Virus record (IMG/VR): IMGVR_UViG_3300032247_001161
Coordinates: 1-28,456 of that record
Direction: 5' to 3' (one strand)
DNA from: a virus
Taxonomy: Duplodnaviria > Caudoviricetes
Length of the DNA: 28,456 nucleotides
The notes beneath the pieces were generated by a model that worked only from the letters and a program-made list of their open reading frames with translations, made no database searches and had not been told where the DNA came from. The position numbers and the translations under genes are program-made. Below are positions 18,626 through 28,456 of this stretch, piece by piece; positions within the stretch are counted from its first letter, which is position 1, and each line of letters begins with the position of its first letter.

Positions 18626-19636
18626 TCAGGCGGTGCGGAAGGTGGTGACGAAGCCGGCGAGGGGGCGCTTGACGCCGGAGGCGGAAGCGGTGCCGGTGCC
18701 GTCGACAGCCTGGGTGATGGCGCCGTCGGTTACACGCAGACGGTAGATGGTGGCAGCACCGAGGTCGGTGATCGGGTCGATGGTGACCACGCCACCGGTC
18801 AGGCTGACTGCTGCGGGGACGACCACGCCGGACGAGGCGAGCTCGAGGCGGAAGCCGGAACCGTCCGTTTGGCCCAGGGCCAGCTGGGTGAGGGGAGCAG
18901 TGCCGTCGCTGGTGTAGGTGACGGTCAGGTTCGCTGTCACCACGGCAGCGCTGGCGTTGTCGGCCGGCGTGACGGCGTAACGGCGGGTGCCGGTGGTGGG
19001 GGCGGTGGACAGCAGACCACCCTGGACACCGCCGAATTTCAGGGCGGTGCTGCCGGCGTTGTAGCGGCCGAAGACGGCCCTACCGCGGGACATGGTGTCG
19101 AACGAGATTTGAGTCAGACCTTCGGCCGACTTGGACTCGTTGTAGTTCATGATCACACAGTTGAAACCTGTGTAGTCATAGATCCAGTCACCGGAGGTGC
19201 CGTTGATTGGGCCGAGCTCTTTGAGGAACTCGATGTAGATCTCGTAGTCCTTGTTGTAGCGGCACTTCTCGATCAGGGCGAAGCCTTTCTCGTAGTCGCC
19301 GCGGAACTGCGGGCAGGTTTTGCCGGAAGGGATCTCGGCACTCTTGAGGAAGTAGCCGCTGTTGCTTGCCTGGACACGGGAGCCGGTGATGACGCCGTCA
19401 CCCCAGCCATCGTCACCGAGGAGGCGGAATGCCTGCTCGTTGTCCTGGATCTGGAAGTTGGACTGAGTGATGCCCTGGATCTCGACGTACTGGGAGCCAG
19501 CGTCGAGGGTGGGCAGAGTGATGAAACCGTCGCTACCACGGGTGGCGAAGTAGCGGCAGGGAGGGGTGAGGTCCACGGCGCGGACGAGGGTCCGGTGAGC
19601 CTTGTGGAACGACAGCCCGATGGCGTAGTCAGCCAT
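18626..19636 (-). CDS. Major tail (tube) protein with C-terminal Ig-like (Big_5-type) domain
   Basis: 336 aa with a strong RBS (AAGGAG), strongly biased codons and a downstream terminator. The C-terminus (AVTPADNAS...LTVTY...VVTIDPITDLGAATIYRLRV) is Ig-like. Confidence 0.8.
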   Translation of the reverse strand: MADYAIGLSFHKAHRTLVRAVDLTPPCRYFATRGSDGFITLPTLDAGSQYVEIQGITQSNFQIQDNEQAFRLLGDDGWGDGVITGSRVQASNSGYFLKSAEIPSGKTCPQFRGDYEKGFALIEKCRYNKDYEIYIEFLKELGPINGTSGDWIYDYTGFNCVIMNYNESKSAEGLTQISFDTMSRGRAVFGRYNAGSTALKFGGVQGGLLSTAPTTGTRRYAVTPADNASAAVVTANLTVTYTSDGTAPLTQLALGQTDGSGFRLELASSGVVVPAAVSLTGGVVTIDPITDLGAATIYRLRVTDGAITQAVDGTGTASASGVKRPLAGFVTTFRTA

Positions 19637-21665: not shown

Positions 21666-22595
21666 TCAGGCCTTTTCCATGACGATGGTGCTCTTGGGGT
21701 AGTAGAGCGCCATGCCACCGATGCGGGAGTGGGCCGCAATGGTGAACTCGAGGCCGCGCCGCTCGGGAGGGAAGAACTCCAGGGGCTGCGGGATGTGCAG
21801 CTGGAGCTTGTCGGGCGAGCGGTCGTAGCAGATGATCCGGTCCTTGGACAGGAAGCCGAAGGACTTGGTGGCCTCGAGCTCGTTGATCGGCTCGATGCTG
21901 GTGATCATCGGGTTGGTGCGGAGGAAGAACTCCATCACCGTGGTGTCCGACGTGGTCGAACGGGGCCGGGTCGAGATGATGCGGTACACGTTGTAGGGGA
22001 CCAACATCGTGTTCGGCATCTCCTTCATGTTGGAGTTCTGGACGAGGCGGGTGGGGGCCTCGTTCAGCAGTTCCAGCATCTCGTCGGTGGTTGCGGTGTC
22101 GAACCAGACGGAGGGGACGAGCTTGTCGACCTGATCGTTGTTGAAGAAGCCCTTCATGCCCGAGGGGGAGTCGCCGAAATAGGCGATCTCTTGGACTTTC
22201 TCCTCGTAGGCGCGGCGCACGGCGTTGGCACGGCGCTGCTCCAGGTTCATGTTGGGCACCATGGCGGCGGCCCGCGTCTCCTGGACGGTGTAAGCGAACG
22301 AGCCGCCAAGGGACTTGATCGGATAGGTCACTTCCTTCCGAAGGACGTCGGCGCGGGGCAGATCCTGCGCCTTGTCACCGATGATCTTCATCGAACCTTG
22401 CTTGTCGAAGATTCGATAGGTGAAGCTATCGGCGCCAGGTCCGACCTCGGAGGAGATCGGGATCAGGCTGCTGTACTTGATGTCGGCGTACTCGACCTCG
22501 AAGGTACGGGAGAGGATGATCTCCAGTTCCCTCGCGAGAAAGATGCCGACTTGGTTGTCGAGTCGGGTGTCGTTTGTCATGGGGGTAGCCGTCAT
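21666..22595 (-). CDS. Major capsid protein (DUF2184/HK97 fold)
   Basis: 309 aa; FLARELE...LIPISSEVGPGADSFTY...DLPRAD...IAYFGD...GFFNN pattern; strongly biased codon usage. Confidence 0.88.
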   Translation of the reverse strand: MTATPMTNDTRLDNQVGIFLARELEIILSRTFEVEYADIKYSSLIPISSEVGPGADSFTYRIFDKQGSMKIIGDKAQDLPRADVLRKEVTYPIKSLGGSFAYTVQETRAAAMVPNMNLEQRRANAVRRAYEEKVQEIAYFGDSPSGMKGFFNNDQVDKLVPSVWFDTATTDEMLELLNEAPTRLVQNSNMKEMPNTMLVPYNVYRIISTRPRSTTSDTTVMEFFLRTNPMITSIEPINELEATKSFGFLSKDRIICYDRSPDKLQLHIPQPLEFFPPERRGLEFTIAAHSRIGGMALYYPKSTIVMEKA

Positions 22596-23215: not shown

Positions 23216-24496
23216 TTACTTGGTGGCGGTGAGAGGACGCTTCCAGGCTTCCGCTTGCCGTTGCCGGTAAGCCGAGACCGGCTGGTCGGCGTCGTGACGC
23301 TGCGCTCCGCGCAGGGCGGTGCGAAGGCGGGAGGTGTGGTCGATCGCGTCGCCGCGCTCGTCGTCCTCTTCGTCCTCTTCCTCTTCGTCGTCACCTTCCT
23401 CGTCTTCGAGGTCGTCCTCGGAGTCGTAGTGGGCGGCGAGCAGGCCGTCGACAACGCCGTGGACGTATTCGTCGCTGGCGTCCTCGGAGGGGGAGGAACC
23501 GGTCAGGTTCTCAAAGGCCTGGGCGTAGAGGTCGTCGTCGCCGATGCCGTCGAACTTGAAGTCAGGCTCGAAGGCGGGGGACAGACGTTGCAGGGTGGAG
23601 AGGCGGGCAGCGACCAGTTGGTCGAGCTCCAGGGTGTCGATGCGCGAGGCGCCTTCACCGTCGCTTCCCCCGAGAGCGTTCTCGAGAGCGTCGGCGCGAC
23701 CTTCAGCGGATTCTTTTTCGGTGGCGAGGGTTTCGAGTGCTTCCTCCAGCTCGTCAACCCTGGCTTGCAGGGCTTCGTTGTCGGAGGTGGCGGCCTGCAG
23801 CTGGCGTCCCATGTCCCTGGCGAAGGACTGGACCGCCGTAGCTGCTTCCGCGGGCAGATCGATCTCCAGGCCGTCGAGTTTGACGGTAGCCATGAGGAGA
23901 GATGCAGGTGGTTTGGAGGGTGACACCGAATCATCCTCGTGCTCGGCTACGGCGTCAGCCGCATCCATGCGATCGAGGAGAAGTCGAACCTCAGGGCCGG
24001 CACGGCCTCGGGGGACGATGGCGATGTGGTTGACCCTGATGTTGCGTTGGACGCCGTCGTAGGACTCGCCCTCGGGGGTGAATCCTGGGGTGGGGTCGAA
24101 GTCGACCTTGTAGCCGGCGGAGACCTCGGTGGCCTCTTTGCGCTTGATGCGCTCGACGGAATCTGCGTCGGTGACGACGAGAGCCACTTCAACAAAGCCA
24201 TCAGAGAACTTGACGTGGGAGCCGGAGGTTCCCTTGCTGAATTCGCTGGTGTTTGTCGCGTCGAGGAGGACCGGGGGGTGGGTCCACGTCACAGGTTTCA
24301 TGCCGAACGTCGCGAGGGTGTCGGGGTTTCCGACTTCCTCGGGCGGGCGATATTCCCGGACTTGGGAGCCGTCAGCACGCCGGTACAGCTGTGTGCCCGT
24401 GCGGGCCGCTCGACACCAGACCCTGAGGTAGCCCTCGGGGGTGGTTTCGCTCCTGGTGATAGGGGCGAAGTCGTAGCGGCAGACTGATGCGTCCAT
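23216..24496 (-). CDS. DUF2213-family prohead protease/scaffold protein
   Basis: 426 aa; TPEGYL...ARTGTQLY...RPPEEV...PVTWTHP...EVSAGY...YDGVQRNIRVNHIAIVPRGRAG is the DUF2213 signature; acidic coiled-coil C-terminal half. Confidence 0.9.
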   Translation of the reverse strand: MDASVCRYDFAPITRSETTPEGYLRVWCRAARTGTQLYRRADGSQVREYRPPEEVGNPDTLATFGMKPVTWTHPPVLLDATNTSEFSKGTSGSHVKFSDGFVEVALVVTDADSVERIKRKEATEVSAGYKVDFDPTPGFTPEGESYDGVQRNIRVNHIAIVPRGRAGPEVRLLLDRMDAADAVAEHEDDSVSPSKPPASLLMATVKLDGLEIDLPAEAATAVQSFARDMGRQLQAATSDNEALQARVDELEEALETLATEKESAEGRADALENALGGSDGEGASRIDTLELDQLVAARLSTLQRLSPAFEPDFKFDGIGDDDLYAQAFENLTGSSPSEDASDEYVHGVVDGLLAAHYDSEDDLEDEEGDDEEEEDEEDDERGDAIDHTSRLRTALRGAQRHDADQPVSAYRQRQAEAWKRPLTATK

Positions 24497-24558: not shown

Positions 24559-24774
24559 GTGGCGATTCACAGGCAGCTTTTGATGTGTCGAAGATTGCGT
24601 GCGCTGCGTGAAGAGAATTTATTGACGCAGAGTGACGTTGCAGAGAAGCTGGGGGTTAGTCAAGCTGCGTATTCAAGGCTGGAGAAAGGTGAGATTGAAG
24701 TATCGCTGAATAAGCTGATCAAGTTGAGCGAGTTGTATGGGTTGTCGCTTGCGGTGCTGTTAGAGGGGGTTTAG
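24559..24774 (+). CDS. XRE/Cro-CI family helix-turn-helix regulator
   Basis: RLRALREENLLTQSDVAEKLGVSQAAYSRLEKG is a canonical HTH_3 motif. Start is GTG 24559 or ATG 24583. Confidence 0.9.
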   Translation: MAIHRQLLMCRRLRALREENLLTQSDVAEKLGVSQAAYSRLEKGEIEVSLNKLIKLSELYGLSLAVLLEGV

Positions 24775-24962
24775 CGGTCTTGACGTTGCCTAGACATGAT
24801 CGCGGCCTCGGTGTAACGCTCGATGTTCGAGGCGAATTGAGGCGACGCACCTTTACTGCGGACTTCTTCTGCCAGTTTGATGATAGCGTTGATGTCACCG
24901 GCACGGGCTAGATCGCGGGCTTGGACCGTGTACGACTTCATGTCAGCGAGAGTGAATGTCAT
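24771..24962 (-). CDS. Hypothetical protein (63 aa)
   Basis: ATGA overlap with the upstream gene; helical; ends RQRQDR. Confidence 0.55.
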   Translation of the reverse strand: MTFTLADMKSYTVQARDLARAGDINAIIKLAEEVRSKGASPQFASNIERYTEAAIMSRQRQDR

Positions 24963-26449
24963 CCTAAGCCTGCAAGGGGTGTTCCGCGTGGATTCAACTT
25001 TACCGGAGGTTGGGTGATACGTGGGTGTCGCGCCGCAATGTTCATGACGTTGTCGATGAAAGCGTGGACACCTGGATAATCACGTTTGAGCCTTTTACCT
25101 GCTGTGACGTAGGCCACGAAATACTCCGCGAAGGCTTCGTCGTCGTGGGTTCTCCCGTATTCAGTCATGCCACGAGACCATTCTGCACTGATCTGGGTAG
25201 GAGGTTTTGCGTATCCGGTTTTGTGATGGACGCTATGACCCAGCTCGTGGATAAACGTCGTAACGTCCTTAGCAGTTAAATTCGGTGAGTTTGACATGTT
25301 CTGAGTCCGTTCCCAAACTCGCTCGAGCTCTTTAGCTGAAATGACACTTGTCGGTAACTTGTCTATTTGGTGTTGTCTCTCAATCGCATCCATCGTTCTT
25401 TGAGTAGAGTTGGCGACTTCTTTCATAACTTTAGGGTTTATTTTACCCCTGAATCCTTGACGTCTTATCCAGATTTCCTGGTCATAGCCGTCGAAGTAGC
25501 AACCTGTGATATTTAGACTTCTCTCATTTATGAGCGTGTCGCTAAAGCTGATACGCTGACGTCCAATATTGCGCCTTGCACGTGCGGTCAGCCGCTCCAG
25601 TGCTCTGGCGTCCATGCCGACACTATGACGTGTAATGTACCGGCTAACCTTGTTTATGGCTTGATGATCTACTCTATCATCCGCGATGAGCGTACGCACT
25701 AAACCGGCCATCTCTGATGACGAATGAGATTGCGCTGCGGTGCTGATCTGATATGCGTGGGCAGCTGCAAACGATTTCTGGTCAAACGGTGTATCGGGGC
25801 TAACAATAGACTTTACAATAGCTCTATTTACATTGCGACTATTTGGACCTGAGGTATTGACAATGCCTGCGTAGGTTGTGCGGGAGGTCTTGTTGTGATG
25901 GATTCCGGCACCGAGGTCGCTGGACTGAGCTTCCGGTTCGCGGCGTGATAGTGCATAAGCACCTCCAGCAATAGCTCCAGCGACAAGAGCGATTTTAGCT
26001 GCAGTTAGGCCTGCGTTGTTAGTGGTAGTTCCCGCACCCTTGCCGCATTTGTAGCCTTTGGCGATGTGTGAAGCCCCGCAGGGCTTGCCTTTGGCGCCCT
26101 CGGGGGAATCCTGGCGTAGCCGGGGTTTGCCTCCGGCGCCGTTGCGGGCGCGGTTGGTGGAGGGGGCTTCAAGGGTTGTGCCCCCCGAGGACGTGTGAGA
26201 GATGTCGGGGCCGCCTTTGCCGTAGATGCCGCGGCGGCGGCGCTCACGGTTCAGCGCGACACGCCGATCGACTTCGTCGGGCTGGCGGTTGATGGCCGCC
26301 TGGTGGCGCACCTTGCGGCGGCGGGCCTTGGGGTGGGTGCGGTAATAGGCGGTGGAGTCGCCCTCGGGGGCGTCGGTCGTTACCAGGCCGAGGACTTTCC
26401 CGGCGTGAGCGCGGTGTCGCGGCGGCTGGTTTTGCCCGAGCACTTCCAC
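24959..26449 (-). CDS. Modular protein (HNH-like unit, Cys header, HExxH zincin metallopeptidase), probably translated by -1 frameshift from the upstream gene
   Basis: HELGH at 25235-25249 plus TEYGRTHDDEAFAE; PCGASHIAKGYKC header. The annotated GTG start lies inside the upstream ORF with no visible RBS. Confidence 0.75.
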   Translation of the reverse strand: MEVLGQNQPPRHRAHAGKVLGLVTTDAPEGDSTAYYRTHPKARRRKVRHQAAINRQPDEVDRRVALNRERRRRGIYGKGGPDISHTSSGGTTLEAPSTNRARNGAGGKPRLRQDSPEGAKGKPCGASHIAKGYKCGKGAGTTTNNAGLTAAKIALVAGAIAGGAYALSRREPEAQSSDLGAGIHHNKTSRTTYAGIVNTSGPNSRNVNRAIVKSIVSPDTPFDQKSFAAAHAYQISTAAQSHSSSEMAGLVRTLIADDRVDHQAINKVSRYITRHSVGMDARALERLTARARRNIGRQRISFSDTLINERSLNITGCYFDGYDQEIWIRRQGFRGKINPKVMKEVANSTQRTMDAIERQHQIDKLPTSVISAKELERVWERTQNMSNSPNLTAKDVTTFIHELGHSVHHKTGYAKPPTQISAEWSRGMTEYGRTHDDEAFAEYFVAYVTAGKRLKRDYPGVHAFIDNVMNIAARHPRITQPPVKLNPRGTPLAGLG

Positions 26450-28065
26450 TTGGCGCGGGAGAGGCAGAGGGGGGTGTTGCGCTCGGCGCCGGAGCAGTCG
26501 TAGCCCTCGGATTTCATGTCACCGAAGGAGCGGGCGCAGTAGTTGTTGCCCTTGGAGGTGCCGGGGGCGATGGTGTAACCCTTGGCGCCGTAGCGGACAC
26601 GGTTCTTGCGGCCGGTCTTGGGGTTGGTGACGACCTTGGTGTACTTCTTGCCGTCCTCGGCATCACCCTTGAAACCGCGGGCCTTGCGGCGGCGGGGCTG
26701 GCCGGTGCGGGGGTCGACGCTGACGCGCTCGGGGGTCAGAGGCTGAGTGGGGGCAAAGGGAATCTGGACTGGGGAGGCCCCTCCGGTGAGCGTTTTGGGG
26801 GCCTGGGCCGCGGGCTTGGGGTTGCGGCGGTAGCCGGGCTCGTAGCGGCGGCGGGCGGCCTCGGTGCGGAGGCGCAGCTCGCGCAGGGTGGTCTTGGTGG
26901 CCATGCCTGCAGCTTCGCCGGTGGCGGCCATGGTGTTGCCGATCTGGGCGATACGGCGCACTTCCTCCTTGGCGGTTTGGCCGATTCGGCCCTCGGCCGC
27001 CTTCATCGCAGCTGCGGTGTTCTCCCGCATGCGCTGGGTCTTCGACTTGGGCGGAGTACCCGGTCGCAGAAGTCCGTGGGGTTTGAAGCCTGGTAGACCG
27101 GCAGGAGTGATGTTGGGACTCCCCTTGAGCTGTAGGGTTCCGCCTTGGCCACCTGAAGGTGTCTGACGACTCAGTGTGAATGCAGCGATTCCACCGGCTG
27201 TCAGGGCCGATCCGATGACGGCTGCAGTAGGCCAGGAGCCTCCCTTGCGGCACTTGGCTCCATCAGGGATGCCGGAGGCACCGCATTTCTTGTCGAACCG
27301 GGGTGAGCGTTTGTTGGACATGACACGACTGACGAGGTTTGAGATGTTCTGCTGCTTGACAGCACGTTGCCTGTAGCCCTTTGACGCAGCTGCTGAAAAG
27401 AGAGCTTTAGTAAGAGCAGCTGTCATGGGAGATACATCTTTTGTCTGCGTAGAAATTGGCAGATCGTTTACGATTGCACGAGCTGCAGTTTCACAATTCG
27501 TCTCGAACCCCGTCCAATCAAATGTTTTGCCGTTGAGCTTCTTTACAATCGTGAGTAACTCTTCGCGTGTAGGCTTTTTGCTGGTGTCGCCATCGGCCCT
27601 TGAAGCCGGCGCATACGACGTACCGTTGCCGTGCGCTTTTTCGATTGTTCGAACACTTAAAACTGAGGCAGTGGACCCTCTACGCTTTTTGACAGACGTA
27701 TCGAATACTTTGTGGACGCCGTCTATCTTGCCTAAGTAGACAGCGTAATGAGCTCGCTGAGCTCCCATGAACTCTGCAGTTTGGTAGATGAGATCACCAG
27801 GCTGGAAGCTGTCGTATAGGCCCTCTGGTGGAGTTTTGGGCGGGACGCGGTCGGCAGGTACACCGCTGGTGAAGATGTCTTTGGCCAGGACACCTAATAC
27901 TGCTCCTGTAGTGGCTACACCAGCTATAGTGAGTAGCCTTGCTGTATCTACATTGCCACCTATCGGTGCAGCTGCAGTGGTCTGCTTCGTACATTTACGG
28001 CCGTCAGGAATACCTGACGCTCCACACTTCTTGTCTGACCTCAGCGAAGTGGGAGTCAGGGTCAT
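26380..28065 (-). CDS. Modular protein: two Cys-header units, an LRAT/permuted NlpC-P60 domain and a DUF6321-like C-terminal domain
   Basis: 561 aa; DKKCGASGIPDGxKC occurs twice; PGDLI...HYAVYLG...NCE; KKY...RYGAKGY...NYCARS...RAKWKC. Confidence 0.78.
   Translation of the reverse strand: MTLTPTSLRSDKKCGASGIPDGRKCTKQTTAAAPIGGNVDTARLLTIAGVATTGAVLGVLAKDIFTSGVPADRVPPKTPPEGLYDSFQPGDLIYQTAEFMGAQRAHYAVYLGKIDGVHKVFDTSVKKRRGSTASVLSVRTIEKAHGNGTSYAPASRADGDTSKKPTREELLTIVKKLNGKTFDWTGFETNCETAARAIVNDLPISTQTKDVSPMTAALTKALFSAAASKGYRQRAVKQQNISNLVSRVMSNKRSPRFDKKCGASGIPDGAKCRKGGSWPTAAVIGSALTAGGIAAFTLSRQTPSGGQGGTLQLKGSPNITPAGLPGFKPHGLLRPGTPPKSKTQRMRENTAAAMKAAEGRIGQTAKEEVRRIAQIGNTMAATGEAAGMATKTTLRELRLRTEAARRRYEPGYRRNPKPAAQAPKTLTGGASPVQIPFAPTQPLTPERVSVDPRTGQPRRRKARGFKGDAEDGKKYTKVVTNPKTGRKNRVRYGAKGYTIAPGTSKGNNYCARSFGDMKSEGYDCSGAERNTPLCLSRAKWKCSGKTSRRDTALTPGKSSAW
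26395..26401 (-). other. Candidate -1 frameshift slippery site G GGA AAG
   Basis: In-frame CCG GGA AAG lies four codons before TAA, and the -1 frame is ORF 24959-26449. The heptamer is identical to the lambda G-T site. Confidence 0.75.
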
Positions 28066-28403
28066 GGGTTAAAGCCAGTGGCCCAAACTGAATCTCCACG
28101 CTGCTCCCGTTTACCAACAATTTGGCTGATGGCCATTAGCTCTTTGTACTCTTGCTGTTTCGTCGCCCACTGATGAAACTTGTTGAAGTCTTGGTGGACG
28201 TTATCTCGACCTCCATATTTCACGTAAAGATCGTTGACTAGCATGTCTTTGTGACGCATAAGCACGTCAGTTGGCACCTTGTCAAGGCCTTGGGTCACCC
28301 CTGAGGATGTTTGGGACGTCTGCGTGTGGCATTTCTTGCCATTTGCAATTCCGCTTTTACCACATTTGATATCAAAGCGGAGGGGCAGAGTTGGATACGT
28401 CAT
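28062..28403 (-). CDS. Small Cys-header protein (113 aa)
   Basis: MTYPTLPLRFDIKCGKSGIANGKKC...RGDSVWATGFNP; overlaps with both neighbours (TAATG, ATGA). Confidence 0.75.
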   Translation of the reverse strand: MTYPTLPLRFDIKCGKSGIANGKKCHTQTSQTSSGVTQGLDKVPTDVLMRHKDMLVNDLYVKYGGRDNVHQDFNKFHQWATKQQEYKELMAISQIVGKREQRGDSVWATGFNP

Positions 28404-28436
28404 TACAGGTCGTAGAGCGTGGGGTCGAAGCCGGCA
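28403..28436 (-). CDS. 3' end of an upstream gene (partial)
   Basis: Reads ...AGFDPTLYDL*, with the TAA overlapping the next ATG. Sequence beyond is a homopolymer run. Confidence 0.4.
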
Positions 28437-28456
28437 GGGGGGGGGGGGGGGGGTGA

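Follow-up and report, generated by a model that had tools for sequence, protein, structure and literature searches.

A cysteine header shared by swappable, head-linked phage cargo units as a candidate delivery tag

Introduction

To our knowledge, how tailed phages select head proteins for loading and then for ejection is largely open outside phage T4, whose targeting peptide is a loading signal. The stretch of DNA analysed here, hereafter the window, comprises 28,456 nucleotides from a virus of the Caudoviricetes (Duplodnaviria) and is the whole of IMG/VR record IMGVR_UViG_3300032247_001161. Upstream of its DUF2213 prohead protease gene lies an array of cargo genes built from units, four of which begin with a short cysteine motif, CGxSxIxxGxKC (the header), placed after an Arg-x-Asp (RxD) site. 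As judged from the sequence, a portable delivery tag on a head-cargo array of the polyvalent type is the best reading of this arrangement, with about an even chance of being right.

The comparisons with described systems draw on parts of the cited accounts. T4 proteins IPI-III (PMC9026906) resemble the array in that a short shared N-terminal peptide is borne by divergent, swappable head cargo, and in the prohead serine protease, which has the same gp21 fold; the T4 cargo is ejected into the host. They differ in that the T4 tag is a 10-residue propeptide that is removed, whereas the header lies past the cut and would remain, in that T4 cuts after Glu and the present protease would cut after Asp, and in that the array encodes multi-unit polyproteins with membrane helices. 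Judging by its position, the header is not a capsid targeting sequence (CTS); the leader peptide, which lies at the CTS position, is a different element. The polyvalent proteins (Iyer et al. 2017, PMC5512222) are likewise large, multidomain and head-linked, share zincin, kinase, ART, InPase and LPD1 domains with the present system, and have been proposed to be packaged, processed and injected, with autoproteolysis by the zincin; the parts of that account covered here describe no repeated cysteine header, Asp cut code, LRAT or J-domain cargo, or frameshift. By architecture and context, the array appears to belong among the polyvalent proteins (PMC5512222, PMC9503650).

A further parallel is found in the MuF polymorphic toxins (Jamet et al. 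2017, PMC5576092), which are thought to be head-borne and whose variable enzyme domains are also encoded beside the portal. Unlike in these, the payloads of the array are not fused behind MuF, which is a separate short gene in related loci L093 and L033, and no MuF match was found in genes A and B or frame C listed below; as far as its domains indicate, the array is not a MuF toxin. Phages T1 and TLS (PMC11447400, PMC11945409) share the protease and capsid families, and their mature capsid protein begins after [K]xD; in T1, MuF and protease have no cargo genes between them, and no Asp rule is stated in the parts of the two papers covered. What is new here is represented by a header that follows the cut and so would be retained, its recurrence in lineages with Mu-like proteases, the four-cysteine module of which it is the core, and a likely -1 frameshift.

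The header and its units in the window

A first-pass annotation had listed four headers in the window, and all four are present, on the minus strand, against a chance expectation of 0.0015 per shuffled window proteome. The architecture of the units can be read directly from the array:

28062..28403, minus strand: gene A (113 aa), with leader MTYPTLPLRFD, header 1, a small helical body, RGD and the C-terminal tail DSVWATGF
28329..28364, minus strand: header 1, CGKSGIANGKKC, in gene A
28071..28094, minus strand: gene A tail motif D-S-V-W-A-x-G-F after RGD, a candidate excised prohead-loading tag
26380..28065, minus strand: gene B polyprotein (561 aa), with leader, RSD, header 2, hydrophobic helix and LRAT/PLAAT-like domain in its first part, then RFD, header 3, helix, basic helical unit, KGD, YCARS domain and RRD
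27991..28026, minus strand: header 2, CGASGIPDGRKC, in gene B
27330..27810 (approximate bounds), minus strand: LRAT/PLAAT-like payload, His at 27750, NCE at 27498-27490
27250..27285, minus strand: header 3, CGASGIPDGAKC, in gene B
26419..26670, minus strand: YCARS...WKC small Cys-containing domain between KGD and RRD, headerless
24959..26395, minus strand: frame C (478 codons past the slip), with TTD, phrog_6437 (HNH-like) domain, RQD, header 4, helix and zincin
26045..26080, minus strand: header 4, CGASHIAKGYKC, in frame C
25249-25235, minus strand: zincin motif HELGH, in frame C
24771..24962, minus strand: gene D (63 aa), headerless, ending RQDR

As had been described, an RxD precedes each header, ending two residues ahead of the first cysteine in three units and nine in the fourth (RQD), and a hydrophobic segment is present in three of the four units (KD17 values of 2.0, 1.7 and 1.6), unit A reaching only 0.14. 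Headers 2 and 3 are the same at 11 of 12 residues, yet 10 of those 11 codons differ; since residues are shared and codons are not, selection appears to act on the header peptide and not on a DNA repeat. A repeated DNA element or a handle for recombination was rejected as an explanation because the copies diverge at nearly all synonymous positions.

The payload assignments fared unevenly. The LRAT-like payload is supported by matches to PLAAT structures (E 5e-11 to human PLAAT), and the His box and NCE cysteine of LRAT/PLAAT, a permuted NlpC/P60 domain, are invariant in 20/20 aligned units. The zincin shows HELGH...E together with weak Pfam matches and phrog_241. The HNH-like domain is a lead only, with a match to phrog_6437 (function not known; E 1e-22) and atlas values of 0.91-0.92 to HNH clusters. 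The domain taken as DUF6321-like (26419-26670) has no PF19846 match and a pairwise E of 0.42 to a true member, so that this assignment is not supported; relative L056 does have a true DUF6321 behind a header. Relatives of this YCARS domain are found in cyanophage S-TIM5, Roseobacter phages and Vibrio phages, and relatives of the gene A body in loci L110 and L035, while gene D has none among the related loci collected. At least two unrelated effector-type domains occur in one polypeptide: B holds the LRAT, basic and YCARS units, to which the B-C product adds the HNH-like and zincin domains. A small conserved gene (PEHAxTRxWFWN) lies right after the YCARS domain in L139, L142, L147 and L149 and often trails the cargo array; it was not seen in the window.

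The cysteine module

The window header is the core of a full module, C1-x5/6-C2-G-x2-C3-I-x5-C4. C1 and C3 are both present in 88 and both absent in 265 of 354 headers, with one exception. This paired loss, together with the secreted homologues, suggests a disulfide hairpin, the full module probably forming two disulfides, with one retained in the window. Homologues of the module occur on secreted bacterial proteins; similar modules end lipoproteins and are repeated in small exported proteins. A four-Cys zinc finger was rejected on the co-loss of C1 and C3, which fits two disulfides, in a test that draws on few subfamilies and is not independent. No usable match to the header was found in Pfam, PHROGs, NCBIfam, PDB sequences or the ESM Atlas, nor any published description in a literature search whose reach excluded most subscription journals.

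Lipoproteins of L495, L499, L500 and L533 carry an eight-cysteine C-terminal module, CCxxCGxxSKPCGDSCI...C...PGCAC, with the header core within it; the three tested gave no NCBIfam match.

Cleavage sites and removable motifs

RxD is probably the cut site of the prohead protease. The model of the DUF2213 domain (pLDDT, the predicted local distance difference test, 82) has the fold of T4 gp21 (5jbl; Foldseek prob 1.00, TM ~0.5). RxD is found within the first 40 residues of 41/42 capsid proteins and 58/60 proteases as against 0/45 cement proteins, and it opens 34/35 distinct portal N-termini. It ends at most 16 aa ahead of 210/246 unique headers (background 12%) and is enriched in header open reading frames (ORFs), with 563 observed versus 344 expected, five control patterns giving 0.76-0.93.

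Related phages point to cleavage after [RK]xD. In TLS, the capsid N-terminus obtained by Edman sequencing, ASDMGIW (PMC11447400), lies directly after KND32; that paper itself, in the part covered, surmises a 45-residue propeptide. The T1 capsid model begins at residue 27, after KQD26 (PMC11945409), and those of E217 and Pa193 begin at 66, one residue past AMD64-S65 in PB1 numbering (PMC10329688, PMC11456595). The proposal that RxD sites are cut during head maturation is thus supported by comparison, through the N-termini of capsid, portal and protease and the TLS capsid after KND, and cleavage in the window would follow by analogy. All in all, it is quite likely that the units are packaged and cut at RxD, and for the large family of DUF2213 proteases the findings support a rule of cutting after Asp. 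The residue two before the Asp seems lineage-specific in DUF2213 phages (head genes of L133, L135, L217 and L222): R in this clade, K/R in T1 and TLS, A in PB1 (AMD, AQD) and T/V in Pam3.

On the excised side of the cut lies a leader motif, M[TSAN]LTPxx[LVI]RxD (MTLTPxxLRxD), and a tail motif, DS[VI][WY]AxGF, ends 60/256 complete header ORFs, gene A included; relatives hold 60 unique copies of the latter, 53 in header ORFs and 56 at most 9 aa from the stop. Both motifs occupy the position of the T4 CTS and, in this clade, would fit a removable packaging role better than the header does. The header had been proposed as a packaging or ejection tag; its sharing by unrelated payloads and its head linkage hold, but a role as removable packaging propeptide does not, because the header lies C-terminal to RxD. 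It therefore would stay on the released unit, unlike the T4 targeting peptide.

A helical 'AY...R-x-D' spacer, such as VKAYLEMRLRQD, flanks many cut sites in L093:2227-6801, L011, L125 and others; it resembles the C-terminal helix of the scaffold and is another candidate assembly tag.

Payload variety

Collected header units number 526, of which 333 are unique sequences in 70 clusters. A Pfam scan of 132 of 151 representatives (at least 120 aa, the window's own excluded) found 11 kinases, 8 J-domains, 5 LRAT, 1 ART, 1 alpha/beta hydrolase, 1 DUF6321 and 3 weak stray matches, and 102/132 had no match. Among header proteins, polyvalent-protein domains are represented by ART-PolyVal (4/42), InPase (4/42) and LPD1 (in P0048 and L218); inside the window the only such domain is the zincin, with its weak matches. 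Polyproteins bear up to six headers, one per unit, and profile matches reach 3278 aa.

Payload swapping is seen directly in sister contig L002, whose flanks are 93-95% identical to the window, with a kinase in place of the LRAT and with C and D missing altogether. The guanine-cytosine (GC) content of payload DNA is ~50%, versus 65-72% in conserved units. The view that many different domains, and not invariant payloads, follow the header is thus upheld by this swap and by the kinase, LRAT, J-domain, lipase, ART and zincin payloads. An early hydrophobic segment (at most 80 residues from the header) occurs in 147/329 units versus 0/235 later control windows.

Distribution of the header

The pattern CGxxxIxxxxxC has 438 matches in 131 related loci plus the window, always on the head-gene strand, and in protease-holding loci, which overlap and are not independent, 371/374 headers lie upstream of the protease. 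In seven near-complete close genomes, 38/38 matches are at most 10 kb before the protease; relatives carry 3-9 headers each, nearly all of them in the stretch from portal to protease. Two more distant genomes have further headers among their tail genes or following a portal that is placed apart. A header-seeded scan yielded 93 unique in-frame matches, 55 of at least 20 bits and 33 of these with >4 kb of DNA; a head gene is held by 30/33 of the latter, in agreement with the proposed linkage to head modules. Of the three exceptions, L247 adjoins a terminase; L369, which is homologous to the remaining two, does as well. The expected confinement to the portal-DUF2213 interval and to RxD phages does not hold, as G006, G007, G010, G420 and L258 show.

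At E<=0.001, a 70-sequence header profile recovered 745 protein clusters, of which 129 reached 1e-10. Among 149 new best profile matches, the header is preceded by [RK]xD in 122 and by x-x-N in 13; 8 are short proteins whose starts resemble signal peptides, and 6 are of other kinds. The header recurs in two unrelated lineages with Mu-like proteases, where the candidate cut motifs are different ones (F[AS]E, xxN). The first is represented by G010, a phage that is complete at 118.6 kb and has a Mu-like portal. Its 19 header matches fall on both strands, mostly start 3-9 residues after Met and precede payloads that include LRAT, an exonuclease and zincin-like domains; two header modules lie within its Mu-like protease-scaffold (weak Pfam match, E 6e-5). 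In 17 header proteins of G010, F[AS]E occurs 15 times versus 2.6 expected, 7 of the occurrences being in the protease; in 128 other proteins it occurs 9 times versus 10.9 expected. In the second lineage, G420/L608, there are 13 header matches, InPase and ART-PolyVal cargo, and a Mu-like protease (E 6e-20) with a header directly after LAN. Across the 13 Asn proteins, picked by eye for that feature, x-x-N precedes 40/43 headers (background 14%); in L608 the enrichment is modest in the scaffold and absent in the capsid protein. The Sf11 capsid model, in the part of its account covered, begins after ALN45 (PMC12724387), a precedent for Asn cutting only. The header is retained across lineages that differ in proteases and candidate cut motifs, in G010 and L608 inside the Mu-like protease, and it is also carried by the portal fusion P0151.

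On the bacterial side, the header was found in 0/401 genomes sampled from the cyanobacterial phylum (the phylum of G015), and a GTDB pattern scan gave 67 unique in-frame matches, just 3 of at least 20 bits. No genomic context was found for P0019.

Three related features were observed. In a lower-GC DUF2213 lineage (L258:5282-14507, L535), the header genes have neck genes on one side and the tape measure on the other, and encode lipase-like and J-domain payloads and, by eye, a JAB-like motif. In G010 (L480:979-2964), a header after FSE fronts a 661-aa protein that is polymerase-like by eye, has no Pfam match and is perhaps a virion-borne enzyme. Some other head-linked proteins (L246:1779-5866, L369:9926-11462, L220:14017-18000) carry a further cysteine-pair motif, C-x-[RK]-P-[DN]-G-x-x-Y-G-x4-C, placed after F[AS]E-like or RxD sites; it is possibly an alternative header type.

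Possible roles of the header

In the proposed mechanism, late genes would make polyproteins whose leaders and tails, themselves excised, would bring them into the prohead, as T4 propeptides do. The DUF2213 protease would cut the chains after Arg-x-Asp, most freed enzymes then beginning with the header, which at infection would direct them from the head to the host envelope, where the hydrophobic helix would park LRAT, lipase, kinase or J-domain payloads on the host membrane.

That the header is a sorting tag of some kind is fairly probable, while its action after the cut has slightly less than an even chance. A role after maturation, be it ejection or uptake, is favoured because there is one tag per freed piece, because its N-terminal position is fixed over three protease types, and because the probable disulfide is of an extracytoplasmic type. 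More tentatively, the header may be a portable delivery signal, borrowed from a secreted bacterial disulfide module and brought to the N-terminus by any prohead protease (Asp-, Glu- or Asn-cutting); passengers would then pass portal and tail into the host envelope, and one phage would inject up to ~19 different effectors.

An unlikely alternative is that the header acts as a prohead-loading or retention module. By binding to the scaffold core, to the shell or to its fellow headers it would enclose the cargo and hold it after cleavage, ejection proceeding without a special tag. Headers built into the protease-scaffold in two lineages, the 19 sites of G010 spread over both strands with no other visible shared tag, and absence from 401/401 sampled cyanobacterial-phylum genomes all agree with loading. 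However, loading needs one tag per chain and delivery one per piece, so that one header per polyprotein unit favours delivery and would be redundant for loading. In addition, the excised-side leader and tail suit a T4-like role better in this clade, phages whose proteases and scaffolds are unrelated have the header in common, and heads assemble in the cytoplasm, where disulfides do not form.

It is more doubtful still that the header is a mere stabilising disulfide hairpin or DNA-binding cap, the units being mostly basic core or filler with enzymes as passengers. All unique units are net basic, most scanned payloads (102/132) lack a Pfam domain, and similar modules are simple repeats on small secreted proteins; yet headers of the Asn lineage are often acidic, the catalytic motifs of payloads are intact, and small RxD-bounded domains (YCARS, phrog_6437, DUF5856) are headerless whereas kinases, LRAT, lipases and ARTs have headers. 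Lastly, late membrane proteins of the producing cell that are never packaged, with header in the periplasm or thylakoid lumen and enzyme in the cytoplasm, would suit the basic residues after the hydrophobic helix (net +2.5), the exported homologues and the membrane-acting payloads, but they are very improbable in view of a cut-site motif that tracks the head proteins of each lineage, of headers inside proteases and P0151, and of the Asn-lineage headers looked at, which have no such helix after them.

Several points weigh against a delivery tag. The header is the only visible feature common to the 19 scattered sites of G010 and also lies inside its protease-scaffold, a distribution that fits loading as well as ejection. 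AlphaFold leaves the header unstructured at low confidence (pLDDT 35-49), and 36/246 headers have no RxD within 16 aa. The term "enzyme array" fits only a minority of units, because of the share of payloads without a Pfam match and of many basic low-complexity peptides. The counts rest on related, partly redundant loci, and the Glu and Asn cut motifs are read from enrichment alone. No header was found in Synechococcus phage S-CBS4 or in any isolated phage, protein B matching only YCARS domains among 50,697 phage records.

Should the header be a delivery tag, single freed units would be marked by a module of 12-20 residues across 745 protein clusters and three lineages of head protease. The header also offers a search handle for unannotated phage effectors, and the array suggests that kinases and lipid-modifying enzymes are among the cargo directed at host membranes when infection begins.

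The junction of gene B and frame C

B and C had been considered translationally coupled; they are not start-stop coupled, the codon at 26383 being GTA. Frame C has no start codon near the stop of B and runs for 478 codons in the -1 frame, which is likely reached, zincin included, by a -1 frameshift at GGGAAAG:

26395..26401, minus strand: slippery heptamer G GGA AAG, predicted -1 frameshift from B to C, 1035 aa product

This heptamer is the same as at the lambda G/GT frameshift site (PMC3296357, in the part covered), where a frame-0 stop likewise follows soon after; there a tail chaperone is extended, whereas here head cargo would be, the zincin unit becoming a low-copy extension of B. Among 45 distinct B/C-type junctions, 9 have the heptamer layout, 12 continue in frame (among them L143, which joins both frames through one extra G) and 24 have a plain stop. 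The slip-site Gly codon is GGA in 9/9 cases versus 2/72 glycines nearby. A downstream stimulatory RNA structure was not seen in 7/7 folded loci (z -1.3 to +0.6), pseudoknots lying outside the model. Sequencing error as the cause of the break was rejected, since the same junction is found in 8 other contigs, 73-87% identical to the window upstream.

Flanking head genes

The window is a minus-strand structural module of a siphovirus-like phage, with DUF2213 protease-scaffold, cement, major capsid protein, neck and tail genes. Features near the array are:

24559..24774, plus strand: XRE-type helix-turn-helix (HTH) gene, separating array and protease; S-CBS4 has one at the same position
23216..24496, minus strand: DUF2213 prohead protease-scaffold with 8 RxD sites, a T4 gp21-like fold and invariant His73 and Ser126
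21666..22595, minus strand: major capsid protein, RLD near the N-terminus

The array had been placed directly upstream of the DUF2213 gene; the upstream position is correct, but the opposite-strand HTH gene (24559-24774) intervenes. By protease, the closest isolate is S-CBS4 (35% over full length), and the host would therefore be cyanobacterial. The contig ends (28430-28456) in a long plus-strand G run, which in gene frame comes after GFDP; as GFDP resembles the tail motif, an upstream cargo gene appears to be truncated here. At the other end (2260-2700) lies a second tail-tube-like gene (weak PF16460/PF06199), distant from the tube gene at 18626-19636.

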